Positions 3,001 through 37,321 of a stretch of 63,561 nt of DNA are shown here, piece by piece. Made by a program: the position numbers and the translations under genes. Under the pieces are notes generated by a model. That model saw nothing but the letters and a program-made list of their open reading frames with translations. It did no database searches and was not told where the DNA came from. Origin of the DNA: an uncultured Candidatus Peribacteria bacterium (GTDB lineage: Bacteria > Patescibacteriota > Gracilibacteria > UBA1369 > LOWO2-01-FULL-3); the NCBI GenBank assembly GCA_964406295.1, contig CAYORB010000002.1:658-64218 (forward strand). The letters run 5' to 3'. Every line of letters begins with the position of its first letter. Positions within the stretch are counted from its first letter, which is position 1.

Positions 3001-3380
3001 ATGATGAAATGGATAGAAATTGTGTAATGGCACCACATCCACCTAGTCATTTCCAAGGTGAGCTAAACGCTTTGGTGGACGGAATAGTTCATGCCTATGC
3101 AAATGAACCGGGAGGTGCTGAGTTAGTACAGGTAGCAGAAACAATGAGAAGAGATGTGGATATTAGAATTTTAAACACACCAGACGGAAAAAGGCAGCAA
3201 GATGAGGTGAATGCTGCCCTTAAGAGATTTAATTCAGTCTTTACAAACGCCGTAAATCAAGATGGTGGTTCTAAATTAATGGCACTTGTTGGTGGCGCAG
3301 ATAGAAGAGGCCAAATGACAGGAATGGACTACAATAGCGCGATAGAAATAGCCAAAGGCAAAGCCAAGTCAGATGACTAG
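3..3380 (+). CDS. large orphan protein (>=1102 aa), probably 5'-truncated by the window edge
   Basis: ORF track 72..3380. The same frame has no stop from nt 3 to 71 (AEVEETISIQKGTVVEEQFPAST then M), so the true start may lie upstream of the window. It has a charged heptad-like stretch (RELKREQSRLNKQIAKLERKRQQLIDKM), a Gly/Met/Asp linker (GGDMAGAGAMGGDMAGGEEED) and a W/Y-rich C-terminal ~600 aa. No signal peptide or TM segment. No family recognised. Confidence 0.6.
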   Translation, partial: AEVEETISIQKGTVVEEQFPASTMETLAAGAVIDKKLMDELTALRNRAIPIDRQLDQLHEEGNKDPKRVRELKREQSRLNKQIAKLERKRQQLIDKMDAPQEARLAHDIRMVKRYEACQYMSEKLGFDVSKPDTKITCTLENGQQVEREIIAIVFHSSGKNVPADAPLTPHIVYEEDGKRMGPPHRTYLDFIRDIIRDNGHVELTNLDQVNEVATHETAGEGIKAHQQFTSNVNGSTFTITNISKDGQITLDHSVVTKHANDLRLNTTPDEKWHDTKQQTLSFGQFAQLLRSKSYRRSDIGTDDLPEAARRIHEALRGRCEKLNKALLPQGQKNHIQDGGLPPENGFVPPMTGETASVYLIHGDQVFQEQWTPSLDENGQTVYNRKRVRLYPYSPRALLGAGVPTRFASKKNPIMDAREIDLDSPTGKYAPLAAITANRMLDMVRDGNVMNVPPSLLKQHPNAGNPSTVTVPGGPAGHFKLDPNANKGRALAVSEEKFDVDAGGDMAGAGAMGGDMAGGEEEDVPNTLGSNVTDEMKHLSVVPYNQARKIGGMTFEQESYLKTLWADTRVFSVMDFWEMGKSMWEYYDRRFDRKQKEKYSSVGKHLPFFSPEMQRINQSAENEEVNQFKETFEEFGALQIQERLRISSNQDEVKAAFQVLSDKGHLRWDDVQMWKNFNQFVSASNKIPIPVDGDPYRIVSDDPNSQHYNRNGFDYLKTALDSVWGEGSYDGWKNSNQSNYASKASSYEEEGKELGNVAGSHTTRLGELLRKHKAGEFVDPHRYEGLILHAIRDGKATMQAKLFYIIEGVAAVNSQGRTLMSFDRVAHIEGNYIAAFPILEHFTSGAPDRATGESVPYTLQDFKKWVHIFDDGEPGRYQPGRMVNKFLWDQVITSETTKTRINKALRNAEGIDHDDYYAYLPPATEQQITDATKGQSGGGKKFLTVEGYKNCFPGFSQLMRTFTEKGESKKLAQAIVSYVRFESIMADRFEKGNDTYQRLDDEMDRNCVMAPHPPSHFQGELNALVDGIVHAYANEPGGAELVQVAETMRRDVDIRILNTPDGKRQQDEVNAALKRFNSVFTNAVNQDGGSKLMALVGGADRRGQMTGMDYNSAIEIAKGKAKSDD

Positions 3381-11067: not shown

Positions 11068-11224
11068 CACTATATAAACATCACTAATTTGCACACAAAG
11101 GTATCTTTGAACCAATGCATCAATCTGACTTCGCCTATAGAAAGTATAGACAGATCGCTACTCAGCGCTATTGCTTTTTCAGTATTTCATTGCTAAACTG
11201 CCTATCCGTGTAAAAACAACATTG

Positions 11225-14113
11225 ATGGCAAACGATAAAATCATAGTAAAAGGGGCAAAAATCCACAATCTCAAAAATATTGATGTGGAAATTCCTCGTG
11301 ATAAATTTACAGTAATTACTGGACTTTCTGGCTCAGGTAAGTCATCTCTTGCCTTCGACACCATCTACGCAGAGGGGCAGCGTCGCTATGTCCAAAGTCT
11401 ATCGACCTATGCTCGAAACTTTCTGCAATCTATGGAAAAACCAGAAGTCGATTCTATTGAAGGATTGTCACCAGCTATATCTATCGATCAAAAAACAGCT
11501 TCTCGCAACCCGAGATCTACTGTTGGAACCGTCACTGAAGTATATGATTTTTTGAGACTGCTTTTTGCCAAAGTAGGGACACCACATTGTCCAAAATGCA
11601 CCAAACCAATTGAGAGACAAAGTCCACAGCAAATATTAGAGGATGTGGCTAAAATGAAAGAGGGGACAAAAATACTTGTACTTTCGCCTATTGTACGTGG
11701 TCATAAAGGTCAGCATTTGAGAGCAATTGAGAAAACCAAAAAGGAAGGTTTCGTACGTGTACGTGTAGATGGAGAGGTTTATTCCATACTAGATGTTCCT
11801 GAACTGGATGAGAATAAAAAACATGATATTGAGATCGTTGTTGATAGGCTTGTTGTAAAAGATTTTGGGAAAAAGACTAAAACTCTAAATTCTGGACAGG
11901 TTATAGATCTTCCAAACCCAGATCGTACTCGTATGGCAGATTCAATTGAAACTGCATTGAAATTTGGTGAAGGCTTGGTCTATATAGCAAATAACGACAC
12001 AGGTGATACAAAGGTGTATTCAGAGCATTTTGCTTGCCCTGCATGTTCAGTAAATTTACCGGAAATTGCACCTAGAAATTTCTCATTTAATAGTCCTCAT
12101 GGAGCTTGTGAAGAATGTCACGGACTTGGAACTAAACTGGAAATCGATCCAAACCTTGTTATGCCAAACAAGAAATTGAGTCTGGCTGAAGGAGCTATTA
12201 TGCCTTGGTCTACCACAACTTCTCATTTGAGTTGGTATAACAAATTATTGGCAAAAGTAGCAGAGGTTCGTAAATTTCCTATGAATAAACCCATTAAAGA
12301 TTTGCCAGCTGAAGCTTTAGATATTGTTTTGTATGGAGATAAAGATATGAAATATAAAGTGGAAATGAACAAAGGTGGGGAAGGTTCCGGTTTTAATGGC
12401 GAATATGAAACTACTTTTGAGGGAGTTATACCAAATTTAGAACGTCGTTATCTTGAAACTGATTCTGATTATGTTCGTAAAAAGATTGAAGGTTATATGC
12501 GTATTCTTCGTTGTCCTGTGTGTGAGGGAAAAAGGTTAAAACCTGAGATGCTTGCAGTAACAATTAATGAACTTTCGATTATTGATATGACTGAATTATC
12601 TATAGTTAAAGCTATAGAGATTTTCTCTGAACTAAAATTAAGTGCAAATAAAACAGAAATAGCAAACCAGATACTTCAAGAAGTGAAAAATAGACTTCAA
12701 TTTTTGGAGAATGTGGGCTTGTCATATTTAACACTTAATCGTACAGCAAACACTTTGTCAGGAGGAGAGGCTCAGCGTATACGTCTGGCTACTCAGATTG
12801 GATCACGTCTTTCAGGTGTTGTTTATGTTTTAGATGAGCCAAGTATAGGTTTACATCAAAATGACAACGACAAATTAATTAAAACTCTTTTAGAGCTTAG
12901 AGACGTAGGAAATACGGTTATTGTAGTAGAACATGACATTGATACTATGTTGGCATCTGATTATATTTTAGATATAGGCCCTGGTGCAGGTAAGCATGGT
13001 GGTAATGTTATAGCGCGTGGTGCTCCTGCTGAATTGATGAAAGATAAAAATTCGATTACTGGTAAATATCTATCAGGAAAAGAAGAAATTTCTGTTCCAA
13101 CAGAAAGAAGAAAAGGAAATGGTAAAGAAATTACTATTGTAAATGCAGCTGAACATAATTTAAAAAATATAAGTGTTAGCTTTCCTCTAGGAGCTTTTAT
13201 TTCTGTAACGGGCGTATCGGGGTCAGGTAAATCAACCTTGATTAATGACATTCTCGTAAAGAGCCTGTCTAAGGAGTTATATAGATCAAAAGCTATGCCA
13301 GGTGCACATGAAGAGATTACAGGGCTGGAGCACTTAGATAAGATAATTAATATAGATCAGTCACCAATAGGACGTACTCCACGATCAAATCCAGCTACTT
13401 ATACAGGTGTTTTTACTGATATTCGTGATCTTTTTGCTCAAACTCCTGAGGCAAAGTTGCGTGGATATAAGGCTGGTCGATTTAGTTTCAATGTAAAAGG
13501 TGGTCGTTGTGAGACTTGTTCAGGTGATGGTATTAAAAAGATAGAAATGCATTTCTTACCAGATATTTATGTACCATGTGAGGTATGTAAAGGGAAGAGA
13601 TATAACGAGGAGGCTTTGGAAGTGAGATACAGAGGTAAGAACATTTTTGAAATTTTAGAGATGACTGCCGAAGAAGCACTTGAATTTTTCCAGGCTATAC
13701 CAAGTATCAAAACTAAACTTCAAACTCTTGTAGATGTTGGTCTTGGTTATATTCATCTCGGACAGTCAGCTACTACTCTTTCAGGTGGAGAGGCGCAACG
13801 TATAAAATTATCAACTGAGCTATCAAAACGATCAACAGGAAAGACTATTTATATACTTGATGAGCCTACTACAGGTTTGCATTTCGATGATGTAAAAAAA
13901 CTTCTTACAGTTCTCCAGAAATTAGTAGATATGGGGAACACAGTTTTAGTAATAGAACATAACCTGGATGTTGTGAAATCCGTGGATTATATAATAGATA
14001 TGGGACCTGAAGGAGGAGACGCAGGTGGAATGGTTATAGCTAAAGGAACTCCTGAAGAGGTGGTTCAGGTAAAGGGGTCATATACAGGTAAATGGTTAAA
14101 GAAATTGATGTAA
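11225..14113 (+). CDS. uvrA: excinuclease ABC subunit A
   Basis: Canonical UvrA N-terminus [55 protein letters not shown]. Two ABC modules (second Walker [11 protein letters not shown]; signatures [12 protein letters not shown] and [12 protein letters not shown]) and zinc-finger CxxC pairs. The ORF track starts at a TTG at 11171, but the ATG at 11225 fits UvrA homologs better. Confidence 0.97.
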
Positions 14114-14590: not shown

Positions 14591-14905
14591 ATGATCGAAA
14601 AGTTTTTCACCACAGAACAAGTTGCCAATATTCTTCAAGTTCATCCTTTCACCATTTTGAAATTCATCAAAGCTGGAAAATTGAAAGGAATCAAACTTGG
14701 ACGAGTCTATCGCATCAAAGAAAGTGATGTGAATGAATTTCTTGAATCAAGAATGACACAGAGCTCGCCAAAGAAAAAAGTAGTTGCTAAGCCTTCTAAA
14801 GAACCAAAAGCAGAACAAGCACCTCAAACACATAAAACTGAAAAACGTAGCCCTTACGACCTGGAAACAACAAAGAAGGATGACGATCATTACTATCTAA
14901 TCTAA
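14591..14905 (+). CDS. excisionase-family (MerR-superfamily) helix-turn-helix DNA-binding protein with a disordered K/E/P tail
   Basis: N-terminus FFTTEQVANILQVHPFTILKFIKAGKLKGIKLGRVYRIKESDVNEFLESR matches the excisionase-type HTH pattern (TIGR01764-like). The C-terminal ~50 aa are low complexity. Confidence 0.75.
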   Translation: MIEKFFTTEQVANILQVHPFTILKFIKAGKLKGIKLGRVYRIKESDVNEFLESRMTQSSPKKKVVAKPSKEPKAEQAPQTHKTEKRSPYDLETTKKDDDHYYLI

Positions 14906-15175: not shown

Positions 15176-15209
15176 CTAAAAAACTCTCCCTGCCCGGGAG
15201 GGTTTTTTT
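15176..15209. terminator. bidirectional rho-independent terminator between convergent units
   Basis: Stem CTCCC (15186-15190) pairs with GGGAG (15196-15200) around a 5-nt loop. An A-run lies upstream and T7 downstream, so a U-tail is available on both strands. Confidence 0.7.
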
Positions 15210-15276: not shown

Positions 15277-16407
15277 TCACCCCGGACATTGTCTTGAATT
15301 CATTGTGTCAGTTCCATCCAGCATCAACTTAAGCTTTGGAAAACTCTCGTCTATGATCTCAAGCAGACCATTCGAATCATTGCTGCGACCATCCAATTCG
15401 TTCACAAACATTTCTATCCCTTCGCTGCTATTCCCATATAAAACACTAAAATGCGCTCTCATTTCGGTTTCCATTTTATCAATTTCAAAGTCATGTTCTT
15501 GTAATATCATAGCGTTGAAAAGCTCAGATTGAGTGGGGGATGGTACATCACTATCAAAAGGGTTATCTGGAGCATTTTCCTTTGCACCAGCATAAAGTTC
15601 TGTTAAACCTTTTTTTGGCGGCATGCCGTTCACCTGTGCGGCAACAAAAGATCCCATAAAATCAACAAAACTATCGTCCGTAGTAAAAAGTTCTACGGTT
15701 TTTATACTGCTAATTTCTTTTCCTAGTTCTTTTGATTCTCTAGCAATTCCTTCACCTGCTTGCTTAAGACCACCATAATCCTCAGTGAAATGTTTATCAA
15801 ATTCTTTCCATTTTTTTTCAACTCCTTCCCAACTGCTGGATTCACAACGAATATAATTTTCTTTTCTATTCTGATATTTAATCTCTATGTTAAGAAAAAA
15901 ATCATCCAATTCTCTTTCAGTAAACATTCCTTCTTTTACATATTTTTCCTTCATTTCCCTATATATAAGATTGCGATCAACTGTTAGCTGATTATCATAA
16001 ATCCTAGTTTTCACAATATTATATGGCAAACTTAATAGTAGACCGCCATCAATAACATGTCTAACATAGTAAATCTCAGCTGTAATTTTATGATATGCAG
16101 CTTTTAATTGAGGCAATTTTTCATTTTCACAATTCAGAAAAGCTTTTCTAATATCACTGCGAATACTGTCCTGATAATCAACCAATCCAATAATATCTTG
16201 TGACTGGCATTGATTGCGATTTAGAACATCATTCCATGGTTCTATCACACCTTCCATTAAGCTATCGTTCCAAATCACAGAATCCAAAAATAAAGTGAAT
16301 TCAAAACCACCCTTTGCTGCACAGCGCATGATAGGTTCATCCTCAGCATAACCAGTTGAGCTAAATAGTATAAAAAATATTAAACTAATTGTTAGATTTT
16401 TCATCAT
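15277..16407 (-). CDS. secreted orphan protein (376 aa), last gene of the giant-protein operon
   Basis: Signal peptide MMKNLTISLIFFILFSSTGYA. The start overlaps the upstream stop (ATGA). C-terminus SFPKLKLMLDGTDTMNSRQCPG. Several conserved-looking Cys. Confidence 0.75.
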   Translation of the reverse strand: MMKNLTISLIFFILFSSTGYAEDEPIMRCAAKGGFEFTLFLDSVIWNDSLMEGVIEPWNDVLNRNQCQSQDIIGLVDYQDSIRSDIRKAFLNCENEKLPQLKAAYHKITAEIYYVRHVIDGGLLLSLPYNIVKTRIYDNQLTVDRNLIYREMKEKYVKEGMFTERELDDFFLNIEIKYQNRKENYIRCESSSWEGVEKKWKEFDKHFTEDYGGLKQAGEGIARESKELGKEISSIKTVELFTTDDSFVDFMGSFVAAQVNGMPPKKGLTELYAGAKENAPDNPFDSDVPSPTQSELFNAMILQEHDFEIDKMETEMRAHFSVLYGNSSEGIEMFVNELDGRSNDSNGLLEIIDESFPKLKLMLDGTDTMNSRQCPG

Positions 16408-18152
16408 GGTACATTTGGTTTTTCCTTGATCTTGGCAATGGCTTCAGTGTTAATTTTTCCATAAAGATCTCTGAAAGATTTGAATAAATTGTTCATATCT
16501 CGCATTTCCAATAAGACATTTCGCAGATAAAGCATTTGATTTGTTCCAGTATCCCCACTTTTATAAGTTTTAACTTGCTGAGCAGCTTTAGCAGCATATG
16601 AGTCAGAAGTTTCTTGTACTTGGTTTAAAATATCTATCTGACTACTACCTGAAGGTGCATTACTACGAATAAATTCACTAGCACCTTCAACTCCTGTATT
16701 AGCAGCGTCATCATCAGTAAATTGGATTTCTTGAAGTAACACAGGTTGATAGCGATTTGCAAAATCATTCCATTCATCAAAAATATTTTTACCAAAAATC
16801 AATTCATCATTAGCTGGAGTTGGTATGGGATTCCATATAGTAATAAACTGAATATTTAAAAGGCTGCCAGTTTTTTTACACTTCGCTGATTCCAATAAAT
16901 TCCCAGTTGCTTTGCCAGGTATAAGAGAATGACTCAAAGTTTTCTCCATTAGTTTATTAATTTTTTCTATTTCACATTGTATACAAGAATCTCCAGGATT
17001 ATAACTAGATAAAGTTTCTCTAATCAATTGAACACTAAGACACACAGATGCATTTGCTTGAATATATTCATTATCAGACCGCGCTGAAGCTCCAACAAAT
17101 TGTGGGGCAGGCGGTGATCCTCCAATGCTTTTAAAATTATCAATAAAGTCACCAACACCTTCCTTAGAAAAATTATTAACTGATCCACTGCCAGTATCAG
17201 GAAATCCAGGACACCAGGGACTACCCCAAGCACCAGCAGGAGCAGCTTGTAATTCTTCCTCTTCTTCTTCTAAATCTTCGTCATCATCTTCATCAAAACC
17301 AACAATACCATTCACATCATCTCCACCACCAGGTCCATTATTTCCATCATCTGCTACATCACGATCCGCTTCCTCTTCTTCAAATTGATCTATTGCATCT
17401 TTAGTGGGATCATCAGAGATACAAACATCTTCTTCTAAAATTTCAACCGGAACTTCTTCATCACCGATTTGCAAAACTGCAGCAGCGTCTTTTTCAGAAG
17501 TCAAAGCCAATCTATCAATCGCAACAGGAGTATCACTATATACATAATCATCAAAAGTTTCATCACGTTCAGTCGCATTATTAGGAGAATCAAGAGCTCC
17601 TACAAAATCCCCACCAACAGTACTAGCGGTTTCGTTAAAGAATAAAATCTTCTCAATAGTATCCAAATCATGAATCAAATCGAAACCTGAATCCGAAAGA
17701 TCACCATTAGCAAATATTTCACTTGGCTTAATGGCCATATCAACCTCTTGTTTTATATCATAAAGTTCTTTTATATCTTTGAAATCTTCCTGTGCATCTT
17801 TCAAAACAATCATTGCATCTTCCATAGTTAAAACTGTTCCTTTGCGGTCAGGTGAATTAAAAATTGGAGTCACAGAACCGTCCAAAACGGCTTGAGCTTC
17901 AGCTGTAGTCATACCATAATTAGCTGCTAAATCTCGCAATGCGTCTTTGTCTGGATATTCCATAGTCTTTTTATAAATGAGAAGATATAAATCCATTCCA
18001 TCTGCCAAATCAAAAACATCACTCCAAGAAAAGCTATCACTCGCAGCTCCATCACCATGAGCGATTTCGGCAACATCAACGCTAATCATTATCATAGTTA
18101 GGAAAACTCCTATGATAAGACCCCAGCTAATTGGTAAAAATTTTATTTTCAT
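16404..18152 (-). CDS. secreted or membrane-anchored orphan protein (582 aa) with an acidic Asp/Glu/Gly linker
   Basis: N-terminal hydrophobic segment ISWGLIIGVFLTMIMISV, acidic tract DDGNNGPGGGDDVNGIVGFDEDDDEDLEEEEEE, and a Cys-containing C-terminal domain with CIQC. The ATG immediately follows the upstream TAA. Confidence 0.75.
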   Translation of the reverse strand: MKIKFLPISWGLIIGVFLTMIMISVDVAEIAHGDGAASDSFSWSDVFDLADGMDLYLLIYKKTMEYPDKDALRDLAANYGMTTAEAQAVLDGSVTPIFNSPDRKGTVLTMEDAMIVLKDAQEDFKDIKELYDIKQEVDMAIKPSEIFANGDLSDSGFDLIHDLDTIEKILFFNETASTVGGDFVGALDSPNNATERDETFDDYVYSDTPVAIDRLALTSEKDAAAVLQIGDEEVPVEILEEDVCISDDPTKDAIDQFEEEEADRDVADDGNNGPGGGDDVNGIVGFDEDDDEDLEEEEEELQAAPAGAWGSPWCPGFPDTGSGSVNNFSKEGVGDFIDNFKSIGGSPPAPQFVGASARSDNEYIQANASVCLSVQLIRETLSSYNPGDSCIQCEIEKINKLMEKTLSHSLIPGKATGNLLESAKCKKTGSLLNIQFITIWNPIPTPANDELIFGKNIFDEWNDFANRYQPVLLQEIQFTDDDAANTGVEGASEFIRSNAPSGSSQIDILNQVQETSDSYAAKAAQQVKTYKSGDTGTNQMLYLRNVLLEMRDMNNLFKSFRDLYGKINTEAIAKIKEKPNVP

Positions 18153-18836
18153 TTATTGGCATTGGCTCGACGTTGAGTCGATAAATTTACTAGGAAATAA
18201 CATGACTTCTTTACGTATATCTTTTAATGATAATTTGTATTTAACTAGATTTTCAATAATTTCTTGGTATTTACGGTGCAGGGGATAAGCAATAGCAAAT
18301 TCATTATAAGCAGCCACAGTTCCTTCCATTATCGCTTTAGATTTATCCACTTCTTTCTCAATCGCATTGCCCTTTACAATCAATTCATCTATACGCCCCT
18401 GTATGCTGGAACTACTGCCGTCATGCAAACTATCTTTGATAGATTCAACTTGTCTCACAAATTCAAGGTAGATATAAAGAGCTTCCATAGAAACACAATA
18501 ACTACTAATATTTTCACCATTTTCTTCACATTTTTGTACTATAGTTAATAGACTATCTTTTTCTTTTTCAATATTTTCAGGTACAAGAAAATTTTTTCTT
18601 TTCTTAAGATCTTTCATAAAGGCATCGTCTTCCAAAAGTTCTTTCAAAGCATCAATTTTATCATTGAATAAATCATTCATCTCTTGATGATACAAATCGA
18701 ATATTATCTTGTAATGAAGATCAGAATCTCTGAAACTCAAACTTCTATTATTATCAGCATAAATAGTATAACTACCATATAAAACAGTATTTGTTATAAG
18801 AGCTACAAGCAAACTAATTATAATTCTTTTTATCAT
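18153..18836 (-). CDS. secreted helical orphan protein (227 aa)
   Basis: Signal or anchor peptide MIKRIIISLLVALITNTVLYG. There is a 0-nt spacer to both neighbouring genes. C-terminus LFPSKFIDSTSSQCQ. Confidence 0.7.
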   Translation of the reverse strand: MIKRIIISLLVALITNTVLYGSYTIYADNNRSLSFRDSDLHYKIIFDLYHQEMNDLFNDKIDALKELLEDDAFMKDLKKRKNFLVPENIEKEKDSLLTIVQKCEENGENISSYCVSMEALYIYLEFVRQVESIKDSLHDGSSSSIQGRIDELIVKGNAIEKEVDKSKAIMEGTVAAYNEFAIAYPLHRKYQEIIENLVKYKLSLKDIRKEVMLFPSKFIDSTSSQCQ

Positions 18837-19433
18837 TTAAATTGTTATACATTCTTGTAAGAAACCAGGTAGTTTTGATTTAAAAGTCATAAAGAAACCA
18901 TACATTTTTGCTATATGCATATTTAAATCACGAAGTTGACTATTTATAGACTTATATTTTTCTAACATAATAGTAGTTCTTTTTTGAGCGTTAGTATTTT
19001 TTATATGTTCAATCATTCTTTGTTTACCAAGATCTAAGTATGAATCTGTGATTTGCGAACAACTTTGAATAGCATCTATTTCATCAATCTTAACATTACT
19101 AAAACCATCTAACCTTCTAACACCAGTTTCCAAAGCATGAAAATTTTCCTGAATTTTCAATTTGTATTGGCTGTATCTAGCAATAGCAATATTTGTAAGA
19201 GAATCATTCGAACTTTTATTTTGGAAATTAGTTTCCAAAAATTTCAAGAATTCAATCAACTCTAAATCATAAACAGGTACTAAAGTATTTTGACAATCCG
19301 TAACAGATTTACTGCTTATCTCAGATGACAAAGTGTTTTTCAATAATTTTAATTCTTCTTCAGGAGATACAGCATAAACAATGTTTCCAAGTAGTAAAAA
19401 AAGAATAATTGTAAGAGAGATAAATTTTTTCAT
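18837..19433 (-). CDS. secreted helical orphan protein (198 aa)
   Basis: Signal peptide MKKFISLTIILFLLLGNIVYA. The start overlaps the giant-gene stop by 1 nt (TAATG). C-terminus TFKSKLPGFLQECITI. Confidence 0.7.
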   Translation of the reverse strand: MKKFISLTIILFLLLGNIVYAVSPEEELKLLKNTLSSEISSKSVTDCQNTLVPVYDLELIEFLKFLETNFQNKSSNDSLTNIAIARYSQYKLKIQENFHALETGVRRLDGFSNVKIDEIDAIQSCSQITDSYLDLGKQRMIEHIKNTNAQKRTTIMLEKYKSINSQLRDLNMHIAKMYGFFMTFKSKLPGFLQECITI

Positions 19434-22400
19434 TAATTTGATATTAATACTTCATTACCTTTTGAGAAAATATAACTTCGTTTTTCAGGATCTTCATAAT
19501 CAACATGAATGACAGGATAGAAAACATCTCCAGGCAGTACATCATCACCGTTTATAAATGTGGATACACAAGGACATGTATTACATTCAGCCGGTTCTAT
19601 ATATATGCCAGGCTCCCCATCTTTTGGTTCTGTAGCAATTCCAGTATTAGCTCTAGCAACAGAATCATCGCCGCTGTTATCATCGTCATCACCACCGTCA
19701 CCACCATCATCCATAGAACCATCACCACCGTCATCGCCATCATCCATAGAACCATCACCACCGTCATCACTAGATCCATCACCATTATCTCTATCATCAT
19801 CGGCATTGTCACTACCATTATCATCCATACCATTATCAAAATCTTTAGAACCACGTTCATCACTAGCATCAAGAGGGTTACTAAAACTCGCAACTTCATT
19901 TCCGTCAATTACACCACCCCCATCAGTATCAGGATTATATGGATCAGTTTTATAAATAAATATCTCAGCATTCGTACTAAGCCCATCATGGTCATGATCT
20001 TCAGATTCAGAATCACGAGGATTTAAACCATAAAGACATTCTTGTGAATTCAAAATTCCATCCTTATCAGGATCTTCATTTGGGGCATCTATATTGTATT
20101 TGCTTTCACAGAAATCAGACATTCCATCACCATCAGCATCAATTTCTTGGCATGAATGTATATCAAGAACTCTCTGTGTCATTACTAGCAATTCATCAAA
20201 AGTCATTTCTTTATCAGCTAAGGTAGCTTCTTGTTCTGTGATTATGTAATTATTAATCAAAAGTTTATCTTCAGTCATATATGGATCCAAATTTTGAGCA
20301 ACTAACAAAATTTCATTATACCAAGGATCACCTTCACCAACATCAGTCAAATCCACTATTTTTTCCATCTCAAGCGCACGTAAAATTATTTTCACAGATT
20401 CAGCTCTAGTTATTGTATTTAAAGGTCTGAATGGTAATAATCCTGAACTATCTTCTCTATTTCCTTTATAACCTTCCACTAATCCAAGCAAAGTAGCTTC
20501 TTTGATATAAGGATAATCACTATCCAAATTTTCTGAATCAAAAATAATATCATTATATCCCTCTCCTTCAGAGTAGGCTTCATAAGCTTCCGGTTTTCTT
20601 GGAATAATACAAAGCATATCCAACAATACTCTCACAAATTCCGCTCTGCTAACTAAATCAGCAGAATCAAATATACGTCCTTCTTCCAAATCCAAACTCT
20701 TAATAATATCAGCAAATTCACCTTGAGTGTAAGTATAGGCGCTGTACAGCGCTCCTGCAGATGGAGTACGAGGACTTCTAAATGGCAAATCATCTGAGCC
20801 AACTACGGTAAATCCATTAGCAGCTATATAGATTTCTGCTACTGCTGTCCCATTAACTGAAATAACAAAAATCAAAGGACTATTTTTCTGAAGATTTTCT
20901 TTCTTTTCTAAGCTAACTCCATCAGTCATGATAATCACATTTCCAGATGTATCTATCAAAGCCAAAGTTTCTTCCGTATCTCTATTTACAAGTATGGCAG
21001 CACCAGGATTACTTGGATCATCAGCTGCTAATTGAATAAGATCATATTGATCATCAATAATTACATCATTCATATTTACACCATTTAGATCTTTATAATT
21101 TGATTCATCAATTTCAAATTCTTCGTGTAATACCACATCAACATTCGGATCTGCGACTATTACAACTGAGCCCAAAACAACTCCGTCAGGACTAACTATA
21201 TCTGTTCTGGTAGGGGAGACAGGAACATGAGCTGGCTGCACAACTGCTTCATATCCATCAACTAAGATGTTAATATTTCCAGTCTCAGGATGAATTTCAG
21301 CAACTACTTCTTCGTTACTATTTTTAACTAAAATCATCCCTTCATCTTCAAAATCATTAATTTGATATTCGCCATTTATATCAGTTTCATTTTTCTCAAT
21401 TATATCCGTTTTCAATACCAACTTTGTTTTTCCGTCTACAACTCTGTAAATATAACGGTCTCTAATCAACGCAAAAGGAATATCAGACAAACGCGGTGAC
21501 ACCATACCAGTTGCAATATAAGTCCTGGCAAAACTAGGATTCAAACTAATTTCAGGAGCAAAAACATTTACTGTAATTTTTTGATTCGAAGAATTTTTAT
21601 TTTCATCTATCAAATGTAAAACAAATTCACGCTGACCTATGTCACCTTCATTAATAAAAGGACCGATTTTAAATACAAAACCATCTTCATTTAAATCAGG
21701 ATAAATACGTTCATCTAAAGTAGTAAACACCATGCCAGGAGTAGAAGAGTAAGGCTGTGTTTCTAAATAAGCTTCGACTATTTCACCATTAGCATCAAAA
21801 GATTTACTCGCATCGATTCTCAATTCTTCATATATGGACATATCAAATACAGAGGAATTAATCACAGGAAATGGAGCCTCAGTATCCGCACAAGATTGAG
21901 GAGCCAACAATGCATGCGTTGAACTAAGAGATCTTTTACCATCAGGAGTTAAGGCATAAACATATGCGTAATAATTAGCATTTTCTAATTCCAAACTTAC
22001 TTGAGGTTTATCTTTGTTTGATAATTGAAGTATCTGCTCTTCAGCTAAGTTAATCTCCGATAATAAAATCTGACTTTCTTTACTATCTATTGGATTTGTA
22101 AGAGCAATATATCTTTGATCAAGAATATCTCTATCAGAACCATAAATAGAAGATTTCAAAATAATCTCATAAGCGTAAATATCATCACCAGCACTTAGCC
22201 AGCTCAAATCAGCGGTACCACTATTTAAATACGGAGAACTCAAACCTTGCACAGCGATTTCACCATCATTTAGATAATCACTAATTGAAGTTCGGCTTTC
22301 TATTTTCTTACCCTTTGGTTGATCTTCGATTATTTCCTTATTCTCTTTCAAATAAACATCACCACCTAAAGAATAAACAATATCAACATCACTATCCTTA

Positions 22401-25400
22401 TCAACATTACTGAAAAGTGTATGAGTTTTCTTCTTCAGTTCAAAAGTATAATTGAGTATATTTTCGTTTAAACCATCATTACCTACAATATAGAATCCTT
22501 TAGCTTGCGGGCGGGAGTTATGTTGTTTTTTCGCTAACTCTCTTTGATCAATTGTGATGTCGCCAGCCAATAGAACTCTTTCTTCAATTTCATCTGCAGC
22601 TTCAGTAAGTTTTTCTTCAATAGCATCTCCAAAGAACGAAAATTCTACAGTCTCAGAACCTGAACTGCTAGGATGTGATGTAGCTACGAGTCTGGGTCTT
22701 TGTTCATCACTTTGAGCTAAAATACGTCCAAAATCCTCCAAATTATCAATATCTTCAAGCAATTCATTCGAATCATAAATACCATCTGCATAATCAATAA
22801 GAGAACCTCTTAGAGAAGCAAGTTTTTTGATAGCAGGATTATCAGATAATTTTTCATTAGAAATACTAAATTTAACATCAGCTAAACTACGATTTAATAA
22901 TGGATCATTATTTCCCAATAAAGTTTGACTTGCTACTAAATTATGAGTTTCAGGATAATCATATTTATCTAGACTTGAAATATATTCAGTCAAAATTTTA
23001 TTCACATCTTCCATAGCAGTTTTAATTTGCTCAAATTCAGCAAATTCAGGGGAATCCAAAGACGCACTAGGTCCGCTCACATTAATATCAATTTGTTCAT
23101 CTCCAAAAGGTAAATCAATTGCACCTCCCGCATTTTCTAAAGCTTTTTCAAATTGTTCATCAATAGCTTTTTGAATCAAATTACTCAAAATTTCTCCATA
23201 AGGAAATTGAGTATATTTATTAATATTCTTCACCATATTTTTCACTTTTTCATTCCAAACTTTGAAACCTTTTTTAGCTTTGTTGTAAATAAACTCAGTT
23301 TCTACATCAAATCTCAATTTAGCCGTAACTCTTATTTCCTTCACATAATCATATTGTATAGGCGGCCATTGCATACCAAGTTGAGAGATAATAGGTAAAA
23401 CCGCTTGTACACTTGGTTGAGTTAAAGTTTCAATTTCAGTTTCAAGGGCAGATTCAGGAACAGGAACCAAACCATTTTTCAACAAGCAAAGAACACGGAA
23501 AACAGGCTTAAGTTTTGATACAACTTGTAATACAGCATTAGGTATTTCAGGAATTTTTGGTGGACGTGGAATATCAGGTAGTTGAGGTAGAGGTAATGGT
23601 GGTAAGTCAGGCAAATCAGGTAATACAAAAGTTGGAATATCAGCCACATCAAATCCAGGGATTTCAAAACTCACTTCAGGTAAAAACTCAGGTAAAGTGA
23701 TACTTGGTAGATCTGGTAGTTTAATAGGTTCAGGATTAAACGTCACATCAGGCCACACAATTTTTACACCTGTTTTTATTTGAGAAAGATCAACTATTAG
23801 ATCAGGCCATTTTGGCATTTCTATGATAGGTGGATCTGGAATCGCAACGAAAATTTGCAATAAGAGGCTTAATTTACTAAACCTATCATTTTTACATTGA
23901 TCACAAGCAGTTTGATAATCTGCAGATAAATCCAATAACACTTGCCATTTTTTAAACGTTTCTATTGCAGTTTCAACAGCCTTCATCCAGCTTTCAACTA
24001 TTTTTTGTTGTTTACTGATATATCCACCAGTAAAGTTCATAATCGCATCTAAATAACATACTATTTGAGTAGCATATTTCGCTTCCAGATGTCTATAATT
24101 CAAAATTTTCCTTGGAAGAGAAGCCAATTGATCCAAAAGATCAAGTAGATCACTTACACCGTTAATAAAGTCATTCATATCAACTGTGATTTTGTCACAA
24201 ACTGTTTTTTTAGCTTCATTTTCATCACATTTCCAAACAGCCAAACGTTCATCCAGTTGCTTTTGCATATCCTTTTTCCATTTCTTCCATTGTTCTTTAT
24301 ATTTATCAATTTCTTTCTGCGAAACAGCCGGAATTCTTACCGCTATTTCCTTACCTTCTATTTGAATCAAAGGAATACTGCTTAAGGTAGTAGCAAAATC
24401 ATGAAAACTTTGGAAATTAACTTCACTCGTCGCTTTTACATTATTTTTTATAAACGGAACTACATCAGGAAGAATTAAATAAAATTTAGGAAAATCCAAT
24501 AATTTATTAAAAATTTCATCCATCTGATTATCTAACCAATTTGTTATAATACTAGGAAACCCTGGAATTTTCACATTACCTCCCAGTGAAGCAGAGACAG
24601 TGTCATTGTCAGACCCAAATCCGCTGTCAAATTCACCTCCTTCAATGTCAGCTGTGTTAGAACCATCTGAAACTATAACAGCTTTACCAATTTCTGAATC
24701 TACAACCGCCTCTTTAGCATCAGCTATGGCATCACCAACTGCACCAATCACAGAATCACAAATTCCTGAAGCTCCAGGAATACCTCCAGGTACTGCAATG
24801 GCATAACAAGGTGAGGCATGACCAGGTCCTGGTCCAACACAAACGGCAGTGCCTAGGCCACCAGATAGGGTAGGTGATATATACCACCTACCTGACGAAG
24901 GTGCAGAGGAAGGATAGAGAGGCATAAAGTAAGGAAGATTTGGCGTACCAATCGCAAGTGCTGCAGTACCAGGCGTTGCACCATCAGGTACAAAAGCAGC
25001 ATAGTTATATGGGATAGGGGAACAACCACCACCTGAACAACGTAAAAGCGACAAAGCATTTTCCATTTTATTTGCTAAAGCATCAGCAGCATTTTCATGC
25101 TTTTCAAACGCACCGTCCCACATATCACTACAACCGTTATAATCTGAATCATGACTTTGTTGATCAACATAGCCCTGAATAACATCCGGAGTTGGAATTT
25201 GAGAATCTCCAGACTCATTATTATCAACAACAGGCACAGCATTATATTTCAAATGTTTCACTCGTCCTAGGCTATCAATTCCTGATGAATATAAGTAACT
25301 GACAATGCCTTCAGGGTTAAGTTCAGGTCTTACCATTATATCCAAACGAGTATCTTTGTTATTAGCAGCGTCTTTATAGTCAGTAAAATTATTACCAATA

Positions 25401-28400
25401 TCAAATCTAACCTTTGGCATTTGCTTTATTGCCATACTGTATTTGATATTACGCATAGAATTAGCTGGGACAGAAATACCTTCAATAACATGTGAACGCA
25501 TAGACATACCAGTTTCTTGCCAAGTCAATTCATCACCACAATTAACGTCTATACACGTCAAAGTATCAGGAAGTAATTCCATGGACAATGCCGTGGCATC
25601 TGAAAGCATTAAGTTATTAATATTGGAATTGCTATTATTTTTTAAAGTGATTATGTAATCAATTTTATCACCCACATCAGCATTTTCACCATTTATATCT
25701 ATAGCGATTTTACTTGAGTTAACACCAAATTTAGTATCAGAAGATAGTTGCACAAAATCAAACTCTCGTGAAAACCTAAGAGCAGGAATATAGGACTCGG
25801 CCATCTGAGAATTACTTTCAAAAGCTGCTTGGGCCGCAATCGCTTGCTGCGCAAGCTCATCACCCGGCTTCGGCTCATCACTTTTTAAAGAAAACTGCAA
25901 TACTTTGTTTTCCACCAATCTAATCCCAGGATAATGTATAAAAACACTATCCTTTTGGTTTTGATTTTGATCAATTTCAAAACCAAAATCCCAATCACGA
26001 GGAGCTTCACTATCCAATCCAACACATTCTCCGTCTTTGATTTTATTATGATAAACAGATATTTGACCTGAAGAATTACTGACCACCAAATCCTCACAAC
26101 CATCAAGATTCATGTCATCAGATTTCATTTCATATATCTTTTTACCATCCAGCGCCAAATCCAAACTGTATCTATCAAACCCACCACCATTATTCATATA
26201 AAGTGAGACACATTCTTCCTCAGCATTACAACTCTCATTTGTCCCAACAACAATATCATCATAAGAATCGTTATTCACATCTATTTTAGCCACACTCAAA
26301 ACCTCTCCGAAAATATTCAGTACAATTCCTTTCTCCACATAATTCCTATTACTAATAGAATTCTCCAATAACTTAACAACACCATTTTTATAAACTAGAA
26401 GTAAATCCTCACGCCCATCTCCATTCATATCAAACTCAAGCATTTCCTTAATCTGCTCCTGACCGTTGTAAAGTTGTTTACCAAGATCACGACTATATCC
26501 ACTGCCATTGCTTACTAAATCCTCTTCAATATCAAGACTTATCATCGGATCACCATAAATAATTCCGACTTCAGAAGCATAGGGCATATGAGATTCTCCC
26601 ACTGAATTACCAGCTGCAAATAATAACATATGTTTATTTTCTCCTTGAAACCCAAGTCCAAAATTATTATTAACATCTTCTAATGAAGTCTGAGCAAAAC
26701 CAGGTTTATGTTCAGGAGCCAATGTATTTTCTTTATCCACTAAATACACACCCATAGGATGAGCAGTAGAATTCCTACTAAAAGAATCTTCTAATCCATA
26801 TTTTTTTGAATTAGAAGCAAGTTGAATAGCAAGACCAGGGAAAAGATTATTCCTACTACTATCAAAATTCATCTTCCTAACATTTTGACGGAAATTTTGA
26901 TTAATACTCACGACAGCATAAGGCAGCTCATTATAAGTCACAACAAAGGTCAAATGACTTAAACTAAGGTTATCATTTTCTTCAGGCAATCTAACAGAAA
27001 AATCATCACTATTAAGAAAAACTCTACCCAACTTATCAATCCTCACATGTCTTTCGCTACCTTCTTCTATGTATATCTCATCACCAATCAATTTAGCTTC
27101 AAGATTAGACTGTGGACTAATAATTTTCACATAAACACCTTCTTCTTTTGCATTTAATTCTTGTTCATTTTCCAGCAAACTCAATGCCAGCTCTTTAGGT
27201 TTCACCAAAAAAGTAGCCAATTCTTTTTTAGCGATTCTGTCAGATAATATAATTTTATGATAATCAAGTTTCTTAGACGCAGGAACTAAAACCGATTCAA
27301 TTTGATTAGACATGAGTTCTATAACTCCATAAGCGTCCACTGAAATCAGTTTTTTATATCCATCTGGATCAGCTGTTATAGCGCTCACGACTTGCGACTG
27401 CCCATTATACAAAATTTTCTGAGCCAAATTCTCTCTTAGCAATTCGTCACCAAAATCACCACCAAGTAAAGAAGTATACAAAGATCTAGGCGCAAATTTT
27501 TCTACATCACTAGCTCTAATAAATTTTTTCACATCCAAAGATAAATACGCAGAATCTAAGTCAGGGGATTTAGCCACAAAATTAACTTTACCAGATTTTC
27601 CTTTACTCACAATCTGAGTAGAAGCTATTCCTTCTAGACTTAGAGCACTTGCAGCCTCAAAATCAATAAGTTCATCACCAGCTTCACTCACAGCAAACTC
27701 AACTCTCCTTCCATTATCTTTACTTACAAGATTCCCAAAACTATCCAAAAGTCTTGCTTGTAGAAAAACACTTTCCTCAGGATTAGTACTTATAATTTTC
27801 TCAGAACTTATTAACTCAATTTGAGTTGCTTCACCAGCAACAGTTTTCAATTTAGCGTTTGTAGAGGCAAAACCTGGCACAGTAATAGAAATTTCAACAT
27901 TACCGGTTAAGCTAGAAGATTGAAACAGAGCATCAGCCGCTTTAACCACTCCAGCCTTCATTTTTTCTGCTGCTTGATTCTTAAATCCACCAAAACTAGA
28001 GGTCAAAATCTCAAAATCAATAGGTCCATTATAACTTCCAACCACTTGATCTTCATAAAGCATAGTCACTTCAAATCCAGCAATATCAGATTTATTTGCA
28101 AGGATTTCATCCACAGTATTAAAATTTCTATCCACTATATCTACAGCCAGCTCCACGCTATCCACCACATCAAGCGTGACAGAAGCTCCTATTTCATTCA
28201 CAAAATCAATCTCTCTCCATCTTTCACCAACTTCAAGAAATCTATTCTCCAAATTCCTATCCATCAAAACAAAAATCAGATGAGCTAAACCAACCTGATC
28301 CTTAGCTATTACATCCAATTCAGCTACACCTTCCATTGTATTTAACTGAGTACCCACAATCACTGAACTCATATCCACACTCGGATTTATTTCAACAACA

Positions 28401-31400
28401 TCATTACTAAATACAGCAACTTGAGAGAAATCATTATTCGCCAAATTCCCAAACTCATCATAAAGTGAAATCGTGAAATGCGATTTCGATTGATTATTCG
28501 CTACTAACAAAAAGCTATTAGCTTCAACTTCTATAGCTACAGGTTCTCCAGCTTCTAATTGTATTTCTTTCTTAGCATAAGGATAAATACCTTCACTAAT
28601 AACATCAGCACGTAGATTTACAAAACCAGTTTTAGTCCCAGTTTTTATACTAACAAAAGCGATTCCATTTTCAGTGCTAACAACATTTTCTCCAACAAAT
28701 TCAGCCAATTCATTATCCAAAGAAAATTTTAATTGATGTACGACATCAGAATCAATACCATCATTTCCCCATACTTGTACTTCAAATTCCATTATGCCTT
28801 CACCATCAGCAACAAGAGCATCTTCATCAGAGAAAATTTTAATCTCATTATTAGTAGAATTGATTTGAACAGCATTTGAAAATAAACCTTCATCAGTTTT
28901 CACTCTAAGGGTAGCCATACCTACAACATCACTTGCTCTTAATTTAAACTCAACTTTACCATTTTCAAATTGCTTAGAATCTGAACTCGTAACATCAAAA
29001 GCGACTTCCTCTTGAACAATTTCAAGATTACCTAGTTCTTTAGCATTCACTATCGCATTAGCATTTTCATCATAAGCAGTTCCGCTTACTATCACTTCAT
29101 CAGAAGTTTTCGTAGAAGCAACATATCTATCAACCTCCAATTCTATTCTATCAATTCTAGTAAGAGGGATTTCATTATCATCAAAATGAAAATTCGGATT
29201 AAATCCACAGGATTGTTCAAAATTCGGCACTGAAGTAAATCCGTCTATAAATATTTCCAATTCTTTAAGAAATTGATCCAACCATACAAACTCCCAGTCA
29301 TCTTCATCACCTTCTTCTTCAATAGCTTCAATATCCCTACCTTGTCCAACTCCAATATTTTGCTCCAAAGCATTAAACTCAGAATCTTCCTCAGGTAAAT
29401 CCTTATTAAAACTCATTCCAAAATAATCTTCCTGCCCATCAAACACTAAATAACTAGCTTCATATCCATTACTAGAATCATTTATATAAGCATCATGTTC
29501 CTTATCTCCATTCAAATAATATTCCAAAACATAATGATGTTTTTCATCTATATTCATATTTAACCAATCCAAAGCATCAGATAATTTCGCAGTAGAAGCT
29601 CTGCGTAAATTAAAACCACTGATCGGATAATCAGTAATATTAGTCACAACAGTGGCCAGATATTTATTTACTATTTCAGTTTCAATTTCTTCAAAAGTAT
29701 AAGTATTCGGTGCAGCACTTGGATCAATCAACATCTGAGCACCAGGCAAGCGAGACAACTCCTTAGCCTTATCACTTACGGCCTTGCTTACATCACTAAT
29801 ATCAGAGATTTCTTCATCAAAAAGATTTATATAATCAACTTTAGCAGTGAGACCCGAATGCGCCTTTGGAGTAGTGGGTTGAGTTTGAAACGCCACATAG
29901 CGTGGATTATCTATAGGCAAAGAAAACGAGTTTTTAGACTTTATCTGCTGGCTAATAGTATAAGGCGTTGGTTCATTGTGAACGATAATAGAGGAAATTT
30001 CACTACCATTTTCAGACTCAAATTGATGCGGATTTACGTTTAAAATTAAATCAGTATTAAAAACTTGTCCCCAGTTTTCTTCAGTCACTTTTTGTCTAAA
30101 TGATTCAGAACCAAAAGGGATAGTGTAAGTAGTTTCGTGAGAGAGTAGTTTTCTTGAGATTTCTGGCAAATTTTCACCATCTAAACCAAAAGCAGGATTA
30201 GCTTCTTCATAATCATAGAATTTTGTTTCAGCAACGCCATCCTCATCTTCATCAATAAATTTAAAATCAACAATTCCATCACCATCATTATCAATCCCAT
30301 CAAAAAGCCCAAAATGATCAGAAAAATTCGCAAGTGAAACAGATTCACCTAATGTATTAAGCATAATTTCACTAGCATTTAATTCATCCATACCTAACCA
30401 AATACCTTCTTTTGGACTAAAGTCACTGCTATCTTTTGGGGCACCACCATGTACATAATCAGGCTCATCACCCAAACGACTATCTGCAAACAAAGCAAAA
30501 GATTCCATCAACTGTCCATACCAATCAAGATCAAAAGTAGGAGCAGCACCAGGATTTCCAGTTGAAATATCTAAAACAAATTCATAAGGATTAGAATCAC
30601 TACCGCCTTTTTGATACGAAGGTAATCCAACACCAAAACAAGAATTAAGATAAACATCATCAATATCTTCAAAATCATTGGATGGAAATTTATATATATC
30701 CACTGAATTCTCCCAATCACTTACCCTGCCGGAATTTATAAAATCATTAGTCTTTTTAACATTTACAGGAAACTGAAGCACAGGCTCATCTTGACCAGGT
30801 ATGGTCATTTTAATTGGTGCCAAACTACCAGCAGGATCCAAAACAGGAATAGAAGCAACTCTGCCAAGACATCTATCACTATTTCTGAAAGCGGAATTTG
30901 CATTACATCCAGCCGAAGCATCATAAGCCTGACTGTTATAACCTAAGACATCATTTTCATATAAAGTAAACAGAGCACCATCACTATCACCCCAGTCACC
31001 TGGGAATTCTATATTTTTAGGAAAAACTGCAAACTCAATATCAGGTTCACTTTCAGGATCTTCATCCGTTGTTTGTTTTATATCATCAGTATCTTCATGA
31101 ACTTCAACAGTAAAACTAACATTTTCAGAACGTTTTTCATTACCACGATAATACTCAAAATTAATCACACCTAAAACACTTAACACACGAATATCTTTTA
31201 ACTTAGGACTTGATATCAATTCATCCGCATCATCCCAAATTTCCAAAGGCGCAGGCAATTGAGCCAAGGGATTATTAGGATCAAACCTCATAATTTCATC
31301 TTTTGAAGCCACATTAAATTTAAAATCTTTCAAGCTATCCAGTTCCTCATCTTTTATGGCATCCATAAATTTAACAACCTCATTATAACTCTCAGCTATA

Positions 31401-33928: not shown

Positions 33929-34027
33929 AATTAATGAGGTTAAAATCTACAAAGCCTATTCTAGTTGAAAGAAAAGCCCAGTGCTACAGTTAAAGGTTGA
34001 CGTGAGCCAACATTATAGTCTCGCAAC

Positions 34028-35284: not shown

Positions 35285-35285
35285 T

Positions 35286-36701: not shown

Positions 36702-36707
36702 AGTTAT

Positions 36708-37319: not shown

Positions 37320-37321
37320 AA

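Follow-up and report, generated by a model that had tools for sequence, protein, structure and literature searches.

Covarying cysteines suggest a disulfide-linked complex of four exported subunits encoded beside a giant surface protein in Peribacteria

Four genes that follow the gene of a giant surface protein in an ultra-small, uncultured bacterium of the Candidatus Peribacteria (Peregrinibacteria) probably encode a disulfide cross-linked hetero-oligomer of four Sec-exported subunits accompanying the giant adhesin, a reading to which we assign a probability of about 0.65. The genes lie in a window of 63,561 nucleotides, the whole stretch of DNA that was analyzed. The reading builds on observed conservation and synteny, on homology between two of the four protein families and on the covariation of cysteines between the encoded proteins.

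The locus is transcribed from the minus strand. The secreted giant (4607 aa, 19433-33256), recognized through Pfam, NCBIfam and synteny, is followed by p198 (family a, 198 aa, 18837-19433, minus), p227 (family b, 227 aa, 18153-18836, minus), p582 (family c, 582 aa, 16404-18152, minus) and p376 (family d, 376 aa, 15277-16407, minus). The stop codon of the giant gene overlaps the p198 start in TAATG, the p198-p227 and p227-p582 junctions both read TAA and then ATG with no gap, and p582 and p376 overlap in ATGA; a bidirectional terminator-like hairpin (15186-15200, no strand assigned) closes the operon 3′ of p376. All four ORFs are real and tightly coupled, and their position, lengths, C-termini and translational coupling are as an earlier, sequence-only reading had described them. 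That reading had also given each protein an N-terminal signal or anchor peptide, which is borne out: a basic stretch precedes a single TM-like hydrophobic segment in all four and in most orthologues (p198 55/59, p227 61/63, p582 66/69, p376 56/60). The N-termini are of Sec type, with K/R, a hydrophobic core and an A-x-A-like site, and none of the four proteins has a further TM-like window after residue 45.

The order giant-p198-p227-p582-p376 is kept across Peribacterales and other orders of the class. The four genes are syntenic with the giant gene at 78 loci and also in those other orders, with the giant gene always first, and the module is single-copy. p582 is the most conserved subunit, its family occurring in 57 of the 61 relatives and all 48 high-quality genomes sampled in the order, and in 84 of 151 genomes of the class. 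None of the 596 cluster representatives of p582-family homologues carries a name. Pfam, NCBIfam and PDB gave no match for p198, p227, p582 or p376, and fold searches gave no significant match, so their function is read from context only; it is probably host attachment.

Part of that context is the giant itself, which contains Ig-like/Big, FG-GAP and DUF11 modules (Pfam, NCBIfam), a highly conserved central region that includes a CDQC motif (23894-23905), and a C-terminal CxxCPC (19568-19585) that is invariant in 53/53 sequences. Directly upstream, also on the minus strand, lie type IV pilus genes (33428-38536; Pfam N_methyl, T2SSF, T2SSE, PilO) encoding a 166-aa pilin (33428-33928, minus; N_methyl match, 1.6e-10), PilC (34028-35284, minus), PilB (35286-36701, minus), a PilO-like protein (36708-37319, minus) and a 404-aa protein (37322-38536, minus). 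The genome also encodes VKOR and two DsbA-like proteins.

The C-termini of the four proteins share less literal sequence than they first appear to. An F-[KP]-[SK] motif proposed for all four is indeed present in each here, but it recurs in few orthologues (p198 3/59, p227 10/63, p582 7/69, p376 1/60), and the glutamine noted before the terminal cysteine is conserved in the p376 family (47/60) and not in the others. Conserved instead are a final amphipathic helix, a cap that is aromatic or proline, and a short tail. Amphipathicity is pronounced in the C-terminal helix of each of the four proteins, with a strong 3.5-residue periodicity, and the caps read tF..KLPgf...C in the p198 family and fP.kFiDaTtt.C in the p227 family. 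The near-terminal cysteine itself proved well conserved: C195 of p198 (codon 18849-18851) is kept in 54 of 59 orthologues, C226 of p227 (codon 18159-18161) in 61 of 63, always as the penultimate residue, and C374 of p376 (codon 15286-15288), within a conserved RQC, in 57 of 60. These cysteines lie 1-3 residues from the C-terminus here and 0-6 in orthologues, with one residue always following in the p227 family and 0-5 in the p376 family. Of this genome's ORFs of 150 aa or longer, only 5.8% carry a cysteine in their last six residues, which places its recurrence here above chance.

The suggestion that the proteins are largely helical holds for p227 and in part for p582. The AF2 model of p227 (pLDDT 89.9) is an all-helical bundle (helices 41-67, 76-82, 95-104, 111-138 and 144-211) in which a short loop lies between C103 and C114 and the tail (212-226) is an unstructured coil of lower pLDDT within an otherwise confident model. 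p198, which has conserved C47 and C125 besides C195, is probably helical as well. In p582, a helical domain (NGDxxDSGFDL) at the N-terminus is followed by a linker that is acidic and disordered, then by a cysteine-rich core (C371, CIQC at 390/393, and TGNLLESAKC425K, with the C425 codon at 16878-16880) and a long C-terminal helix. Its model of helices and two small hairpins shows no pilin-like match; the N-terminal domain and the 73-residue terminal helix are confident, whereas 247 of 581 residues fall below pLDDT 50, including the cysteine-rich core, so that the surroundings of C425 are poorly defined in the single-chain model. C244 and C314 show single, partner-less losses in a few homologues.

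Of the paralogous family of four that had been proposed, only two members are demonstrably related. On profile comparison the p198 and p227 families are homologous (paralogous) over their full length, with an HHalign probability of 95% (E 2.7e-8 to 3.7e-8), or 90% (E 1.5e-6; reversed control 0.03) once signal peptides are removed; a p198 HMM run against all ORFs of the genome matched p227 at 2e-4, and the C-terminal cysteines of the two families align with each other. For p582 and p376, HHalign gave a non-significant 15% (E 0.0017), confined to the last 80 columns, and the remaining pairs reached at most 15%. An echo of the giant's CDQC in the CIQC of p582 found no support either: profiles of the giant's central region are unrelated to all four proteins (P at least 0.05), and each motif is conserved inside its own family.

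The main evidence for bonds between subunits comes from the joint presence and absence of cysteines in about 60 related genomes. C195 of p198 and C374 of p376 are both present in 49 and both absent in 3, with no discordant genome. Relatives carry further tail cysteines, and these behave likewise: an extra cysteine of the p198 family and the last cysteine of the p582 family occur together in 23 and are both missing in 36, and the p582- and p376-tail cysteines at positions equivalent to 572 and 365 occur together in 43 and are both missing in 17, again with none discordant. In this genome the corresponding residues are I572 and V581 of p582 and G365 of p376. An unbiased all-against-all scan of cysteine columns added a fourth pair, C226 of p227 and the internal C425 of p582 (60 both, 2 neither, 0 discordant). 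C226 is missing only in L032 and L041, separate lineages on the tree, which are also the only two genomes without C425. Just two co-losses stand behind this pair. The scan, whose result depends on alignment columns, counted a single discordant genome for c572/d365 and a single one for a195/d374, the a195/d374 case being a mis-assigned ORF. As controls it recovered plausible intramolecular pairs, C29-C93 and C67-C188 within p376 and 4383-4407 within the giant. When mapped on a tree that excludes the tail columns, the tail pairs require at least 6+6, 4+4 and 2+2 independent changes.

Tail cysteine counts, given in the order a, b, c, d, form the patterns 2122, 1112, 1101, 0100, 2111 and 0111 in the 48 complete gene sets, all of them sub-graphs of one triangle in which b is always 1. 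Families a, c and d have two cysteines each in 19 of the 48 genomes, and the pairwise covariation fits the edges a-c, c-d and d-a. The three rules for the tail pairs also held at four additional metagenome loci, all of which had both the p227 and the p582 cysteine; two of them, L128 (2111) and L129 (1121, a pattern not seen before), had been picked solely by the tail of the p582 homologue, when the p198- and p376-family tails had yet to be read, and the other two were 1112. Outside the tails, each protein of this genome has an even number of cysteines (2, 2, 6 and 4 for p198, p227, p582 and p376), with C425 counted among the six of p582; an odd number is left over in p582 once C425 is paired. 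In other orders the tail patterns are less regular. Covariation of this kind records coupled gain and loss and is not itself a bond, and a partner shared by both cysteines could produce it too. With that qualification, it supports the earlier suggestion that the terminal cysteines form intermolecular disulfides and sharpens it to particular residues.

It is very unlikely that each tail cysteine instead stabilizes its own C-terminus, as a local intramolecular disulfide or a free thiol, with no covalent complex needed. In many orthologues the tail does carry a second cysteine 4-9 residues before the near-terminal one (C-x4-6-C in 22/59 of family a, C-x8-C in 43/60 of family d, and C-x8-C with both cysteines in 25/69 of family c), but tails with a single cysteine occur in 27 of the 48 genomes and in patterns such as 1112, 1101, 2111, 0111 and 1121, which purely intramolecular loops cannot explain. 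The loss of a cysteine always coincides with a loss in another protein and not with that of its neighbor in the tail, patterns expected of independent loops, such as 2·0·2 or 0·2·2, were never seen, and p227 lacks a second tail cysteine in every orthologue. Joint bonding to a third component, whether paired cysteines of the giant, a site for a metal or cofactor, or a molecule of the cell envelope, is unlikely. The giant's invariant CxxCPC, its odd mature cysteine count in six of seven full-length orthologues and the loss of the p582 CxxC (390/393) as a unit in two homologues would suit it. However, no cysteine in the last ~2900 residues of the giant covaries with any subunit cysteine, which leaves a covalent link between subunits and giant unsupported; stepwise loss of ligand pairs (6 to 4 to 2 to 0) would be incompatible with a shared metal site, and direct pairing covers every observed pattern with fewer assumptions.

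It is very unlikely, too, that the four are diverged paralogues in which a common C-terminal signal (F-[KP]-[SK]…Q-C) directs processing or attachment. The homology of families a and b with their aligned cysteines, the helix and tail ending all four proteins, and weak C-terminal similarities with E values below those of reversed controls (c-d 5e-4 to 2e-3, a-c 9e-4; controls 0.007-0.16) speak for it. Against it, the literal motif is not conserved, families c and d show no significant similarity over their full length, either to a and b or between themselves, and the partner of the p227 cysteine is an internal p582 residue and not a common acceptor. Known C-terminal sorting signals consist of a signature motif, a hydrophobic C-terminal helix and a basic tail; none of the four proteins has this architecture when compared with LPXTG/sortase, PEP-CTERM, MYXO-CTERM and related signals, and all lack a C-terminal TM segment or basic anchor. 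A CaaX prenylation box (C-aliphatic-aliphatic-X) places the cysteine exactly four residues from the C-terminus of a cytosol-exposed protein; p198 ends in CITI, yet three residues follow the cysteine in only 34 of 59 orthologues (range 1-6). The export signals on all four proteins are also at odds with CaaX. Lower still do we rate the chance that the four are accessories of the type IV pilus, standing in for minor pilins or a tip complex, and not partners of the giant. The locus resembles operons of the ATPase-platform-pilin-minor pilin type, and the order PilO-PilB-PilC-pilin(s)-giant-a-b-c-d holds in 6/6 other Peribacterales genomes examined. Type IV pilins are marked by a short basic leader, G and F/M-T-L-x-E, and by an alpha-beta fold whose long N-terminal helix packs against a beta-sheet; such a class III (prepilin) leader is absent from all four proteins, the N_methyl profile matched none of them at E up to 1, and p227 is a helical bundle and not of the pilin fold. 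In other orders, moreover, the module is not adjacent to pilus genes, none being found in the ~13-17 kb examined upstream of the giant gene.

For the favored disulfide-linked hetero-oligomer, the four genes would be co-translated with the giant and yield the exported subunits of a single extracytoplasmic assembly, each ending in an amphipathic helix and a short flexible tail. The tail cysteines would form specific inter-subunit disulfides, presumably through the DsbA-like/VKOR system, and in this genome the predicted bonds are p198 C195-p376 C374 and p227 C226-p582 C425. Two tail cysteines each in the p198, p582 and p376 families may be the ancestral state, probably kept by many relatives, and would allow three interchain bonds (a-c, c-d and d-a) that together form a triangle, from which later lineages would have lost whole bonds, always both partners together. 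The helices may run as a parallel bundle, and the complex, co-encoded in Peribacterales with a type IV pilus, would most likely be a structural component of the giant adhesin, as its stalk, base or cap, for attachment to other cells. A broader picture is tentative, and we hold it to be doubtful as a whole: a class-wide, as yet undescribed attachment organelle (Peregrinibacteria, Gracilibacteria, Absconditabacteria) in which p198, p582 and p376 would form a parallel three-chain helical stalk with a fibrinogen-like disulfide ring, p227 would be covalently plugged into the p582 core, and the complex would anchor or cap the giant. The covariation yields a testable prediction of four named cysteines and two heterodimers, p198-p376 and p227-p582, and a wiring diagram for a complex beyond the reach of single-chain structure prediction. 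More generally, covariation in cysteine presence across syntenic genes may point to inter-subunit disulfides in uncultivated organisms.

[quoted passage not shown] A role in attachment has been proposed both for large exported proteins rich in cysteine from Peribacteria (Anantharaman et al., 2016, PMC4736985) and for the giant surface proteins of Vampirococcus (Moreira et al., 2021, PMC8080830). The present system resembles these in belonging to the same clade and in having secreted, cysteine-containing envelope proteins beside pilus genes; the parts of those reports consulted treat large proteins in general, with no mention found of four small subunits, a conserved gene order behind one giant gene or cysteine pairing. 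The matched gain and loss of cysteines suggests that the four subunits make up a previously undescribed cell-surface complex. In type IVa pili, PilY1 forms a tip complex with minor pilins. PilY1 and the giant are alike in being large non-pilin adhesins that carry a propeller-type module, with genes next to those of several small accessory proteins and of the pilus machinery, but the small proteins here have neither prepilin leaders nor a pilin fold, and the module occurs without adjacent pilus genes in other orders.

In fibrinogen, disulfide rings join three distinct chains through two nearby cysteines in each, every chain being bonded to both others, and each ring lies where a multi-chain coiled coil ends; the laminin coiled coil is likewise stapled by disulfides. 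To our knowledge, no heterotrimeric disulfide ring of the fibrinogen-like kind has been described in a bacterium. The present proteins have no sequence or fold relationship to fibrinogen or laminin, are bacterial and extracytoplasmic, and owe their putative ring to covariation only. The ring would be partly or wholly lost in many lineages, this genome keeping only a-d; a fourth subunit, b, would be tied to an internal cysteine of c; and the coiled coil is putative. The likeness would lie in the arrangement, with three chains carrying two close cysteines each at the ends of long amphipathic helices, whose predicted bonds would form a ring.

The genes a, b, c and d encode proteins of 198, 227, 582 and 376 aa (p198, p227, p582 and p376) and lie on the minus strand, directly behind the ORF of a 4607-aa secreted surface protein, the giant (19433-33256, minus strand). 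The stop codon of the giant overlaps the start of a (TAATG), the a/b and b/c junctions consist of TAA followed by ATG without a gap, c and d overlap in ATGA, and a terminator-like hairpin is found downstream of d. p198, p227 and p582 share one continuous frame of 3030 nt (window 16404-19433, minus strand), broken only by the two TAA-ATG junctions; junctions and frames differ at other loci, and read-through is thus not conserved. Each subunit opens with K/R ahead of a hydrophobic segment, and no other stretch of it is TM-like. The same N-terminus, again as the sole TM-like stretch, occurs in 55/59 (a), 61/63 (b), 66/69 (c) and 56/60 (d) orthologues. All four families are single-copy in this genome, which is 1.18 Mb in size.

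The sequence-only reading had proposed that these coupled secreted proteins are divergent paralogs, all four sharing a C-terminal F-[KP]-[SK]-x motif and three of them a near-terminal Cys preceded by Gln. The C-termini do read as quoted, and coupling, secretion and the conserved near-terminal Cys stand, whereas the literal motif, the Gln and the four-way paralogy do not. Only 4% of the ORFs in this proteome contain F-[KP]-[SK], yet it occurs in only 3/59 (a), 10/63 (b), 7/69 (c) and 1/60 (d) orthologues and thus does not define the families, and a Gln before the Cys is conserved in d alone. The Cys itself is retained in most orthologues of a (C195, 54/59), b (C226, 61/63) and d (C374, 57/60), and in b it is penultimate in every orthologue that has it; by comparison, among the ORFs of this genome with 150 aa or more, just 5.8% carry a Cys in their last six residues. 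Distant c orthologues have terminal Cys at the positions occupied here by I572 (47/69) and V581 (25/69), both of which the clade of this genome has lost.

With regard to paralogy, the homology of a and b extends along the entire proteins (HHalign 95%, E 2.7e-8 to 3.7e-8) and persists once the signal peptides are removed (90%, E 1.5e-6; reversed control 0.03); an HMM of a run against all ORFs of the genome matches b at 2e-4. No other subunit pair is significant by HHalign, the nearest being a weak c-d alignment over the last 80 columns (15%, E 0.0017), and BLASTP among the four subunits and the giant found no similarity. An echo between the CIQC motif of p582 and the CDQC motif of the giant had also been suggested; in HHalign, the profile of the highly conserved CDQC region revealed no relationship to the four families.

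The tail cysteines vary in concert between subunits. In the 48 genomes where none of the four genes is incomplete, six patterns of tail-Cys number (in the order a, b, c, d) occur: 2122 (19 genomes), 1112 (17), 1101 (8, including this genome), 0100 (2), 2111 (1) and 0111 (1). The count in b is always one and the sum of a, c and d is always even; single-Cys tails occur in 27/48 genomes. Three pairs of positions agree without exception: the extra Cys of a with the last Cys of c (23 both, 36 neither, 0 discordant), c572 with d365, the latter a Gly in this genome (43 both, 17 neither, 0 discordant), and a195 with d374 (49 both, 3 neither, 0 discordant). All remaining pairings of these six cysteines show discordant genomes. 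On a tree of the c family built with the tail columns left out, the minimum numbers of changes are 6 and 6, 4 and 4, and 2 and 2 for the members of the three pairs, respectively, so that their agreement does not reflect one inherited event.

Scanning every Cys column without bias adds a fourth pair, b C226 and c C425, the latter within the motif TGNLLESAKCK. Each is absent only from the same two loci (L032 and L041), which belong to separate lineages, and the pair thus amounts to two co-losses only. The scan depends on alignment columns, and in it c572/d365 and a195/d374 each have a single discordant genome, that for a195/d374 being a mis-assigned ORF; as controls, it also recovers plausible pairs within one protein (d29-d93, d67-d188 and giant 4383-4407). 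A profile search for more p227 homologues yielded only eight proteins and no further natural experiments.

Independent intramolecular loops would produce patterns that are found in none of the 48 genomes; those observed are all sub-graphs of one bond triangle (a-c, c-d and d-a). Newly found c homologues with a near-terminal tail Cys, scored as lacking c1, led to two further contigs. In one (L128), a has two Cys and d only the last, matching prediction, while the other (L129) has only the proximal Cys in a, two in c and only the first in d, a new pattern (1121) that obeys the three tail-pair rules. Two additional follow-up loci show pattern 1112. Outside the tails, the subunits of this genome carry 2 (a), 2 (b), 6 (c) and 4 (d) Cys, all even numbers, the six of c being C425 together with C244, C314, C371, C390 and C393. 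The giant was also considered as the source of a partner for p227 C226 and rejected, as L032 and L041 keep all Cys of the giant and the covarying partner is instead p582 C425. More generally, no Cys in the last 2900 residues of the giant covaries with a subunit Cys; the same region was examined for a partner of p582 C244 or C314 in two homologues that lack these, and one apparent loss is probably an alignment shift. The mature giant has an odd Cys count in 6/7 full-length orthologues, which is only suggestive. CaaX-like prenylation of the tail Cys, a sortase-type sorting signal at the subunit C-termini and a minor-pilin identity of the subunits were likewise considered and rejected. Independent evidence from evolution supports the earlier suggestion of intermolecular disulfides, for which particular pairs of residues can now be named.

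Other cysteine motifs in the module are also conserved. CIQC of p582 (C390 and C393; window 16974-16985) is invariant in 69/69 orthologues, and in two distant homologues (P0203 and P0214) both Cys are replaced together, a joint loss that points to a coupled pair, either a disulfide or a metal site. Approximately 45 residues from its C-terminus, the giant carries C-x2-C-P-C, or C-x3-C-P-C in some orthologues (residues 4558-4563, window 19568-19585), a motif type invariant in 53/53 orthologues. Its residues ~3000-3320 (window 22900-24300) are extremely conserved, with sCdxCKnDRFskLglL, PKWPD, ILCLLKxGliPvPE and a reiterated LPDLPPLPLP tract, and match neither known domains nor any of the four subunits.

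Genes for oxidative folding are encoded outside the window. At C38:7240-8131, a gene for a DsbA-like thioredoxin immediately precedes a VKOR gene, and a second DsbA-like gene is found elsewhere (C28:13233-13730). Together, these genes give this 1.18-Mb genome an extracytoplasmic disulfide-forming system.

Searches of Pfam and NCBIfam with a, b, c and d returned nothing above noise, Pfam run on all 69 p582-family members did not find a recurrent family, and subunit profiles had no match among PDB sequences. AlphaFold2 predicts b confidently as an all-helical bundle (pLDDT 89.9) with a last helix at 144-211 and an unstructured 15-residue tail. The c model is mixed (pLDDT 61.6); its confident parts are a helical domain at the N-terminus and, at the C-terminus, a helix of 73 residues, while the strongly conserved Cys-rich core (~316-480) is of low confidence, as would fit a core that folds on assembly. 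Foldseek gave no match at E <= 0.001 for p582 against PDB or for p227 against PDB and BFVD, the hits being generic helical bundles (best E ~0.2, TM scores <= 0.36). The C-terminal regions of a, b, c and d alike display a strong 3.5-residue hydrophobic periodicity.

The c family is found in 57/61 relatives and 48/48 high-quality relatives, those retrieved with p582 being Candidatus Peregrinibacteria or Peribacteria, and in 84/151 genomes taken from the whole class, some of them from lineages that use TGA as a sense codon. It comprises 596 representatives at 50% clustering, none of which has a functional name in the sources searched. The order giant, ~200 aa, ~230 aa, ~590 aa and ~380 aa is near-exceptionless across 78 loci. 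In six further Peribacterales genomes the upstream order is a 404-aa protein, PilO, PilB, PilC, one to four pilins and the giant, some of these regions ending short of PilO or the 404-aa gene. Three other orders keep the giant-a-b-c(-d) module with no pilus genes nearby; the stable association is thus with the giant, and pilus linkage is order-specific. In another genome of this class, one with TGA recoded (G129, L122-L123; code 25), the module adjoins rplJ/rplL and encodes a giant of 3893 aa, proteins of 417 and 481 aa, a b-like protein of 404 aa and a c of 639 aa, the subunits being enlarged in that lineage. Downstream of the module here lie an HTH_17 ('excisionase-type') gene (14591-14905, plus strand) and UvrA (11171-14113, plus strand). 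Four unrelated metagenome contigs (L128-L131) share this arrangement, so the HTH gene is a resident conserved neighbor convergent with the operon rather than the remnant of a mobile element.

The simplest account of these patterns is a single secreted hetero-oligomer in which specific disulfides between chains would hold the four subunits together. Because synteny is invariant and translation coupled, the complex is probably linked to the giant, and an attachment function is suggested by this link together with published views of large exported proteins of this clade as attachment factors (PMC4736985, PMC8080830). Neither the protein families nor the module seem to have been described in the literature searched. 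In this genome, the predicted bonds are p198 C195-p376 C374 and p227 C226-p582 C425. Ancestrally, three bonds at the end of the terminal helices may have joined the tails of a, c and d into a ring, an arrangement that shares only its working principle with the disulfide rings of fibrinogen.
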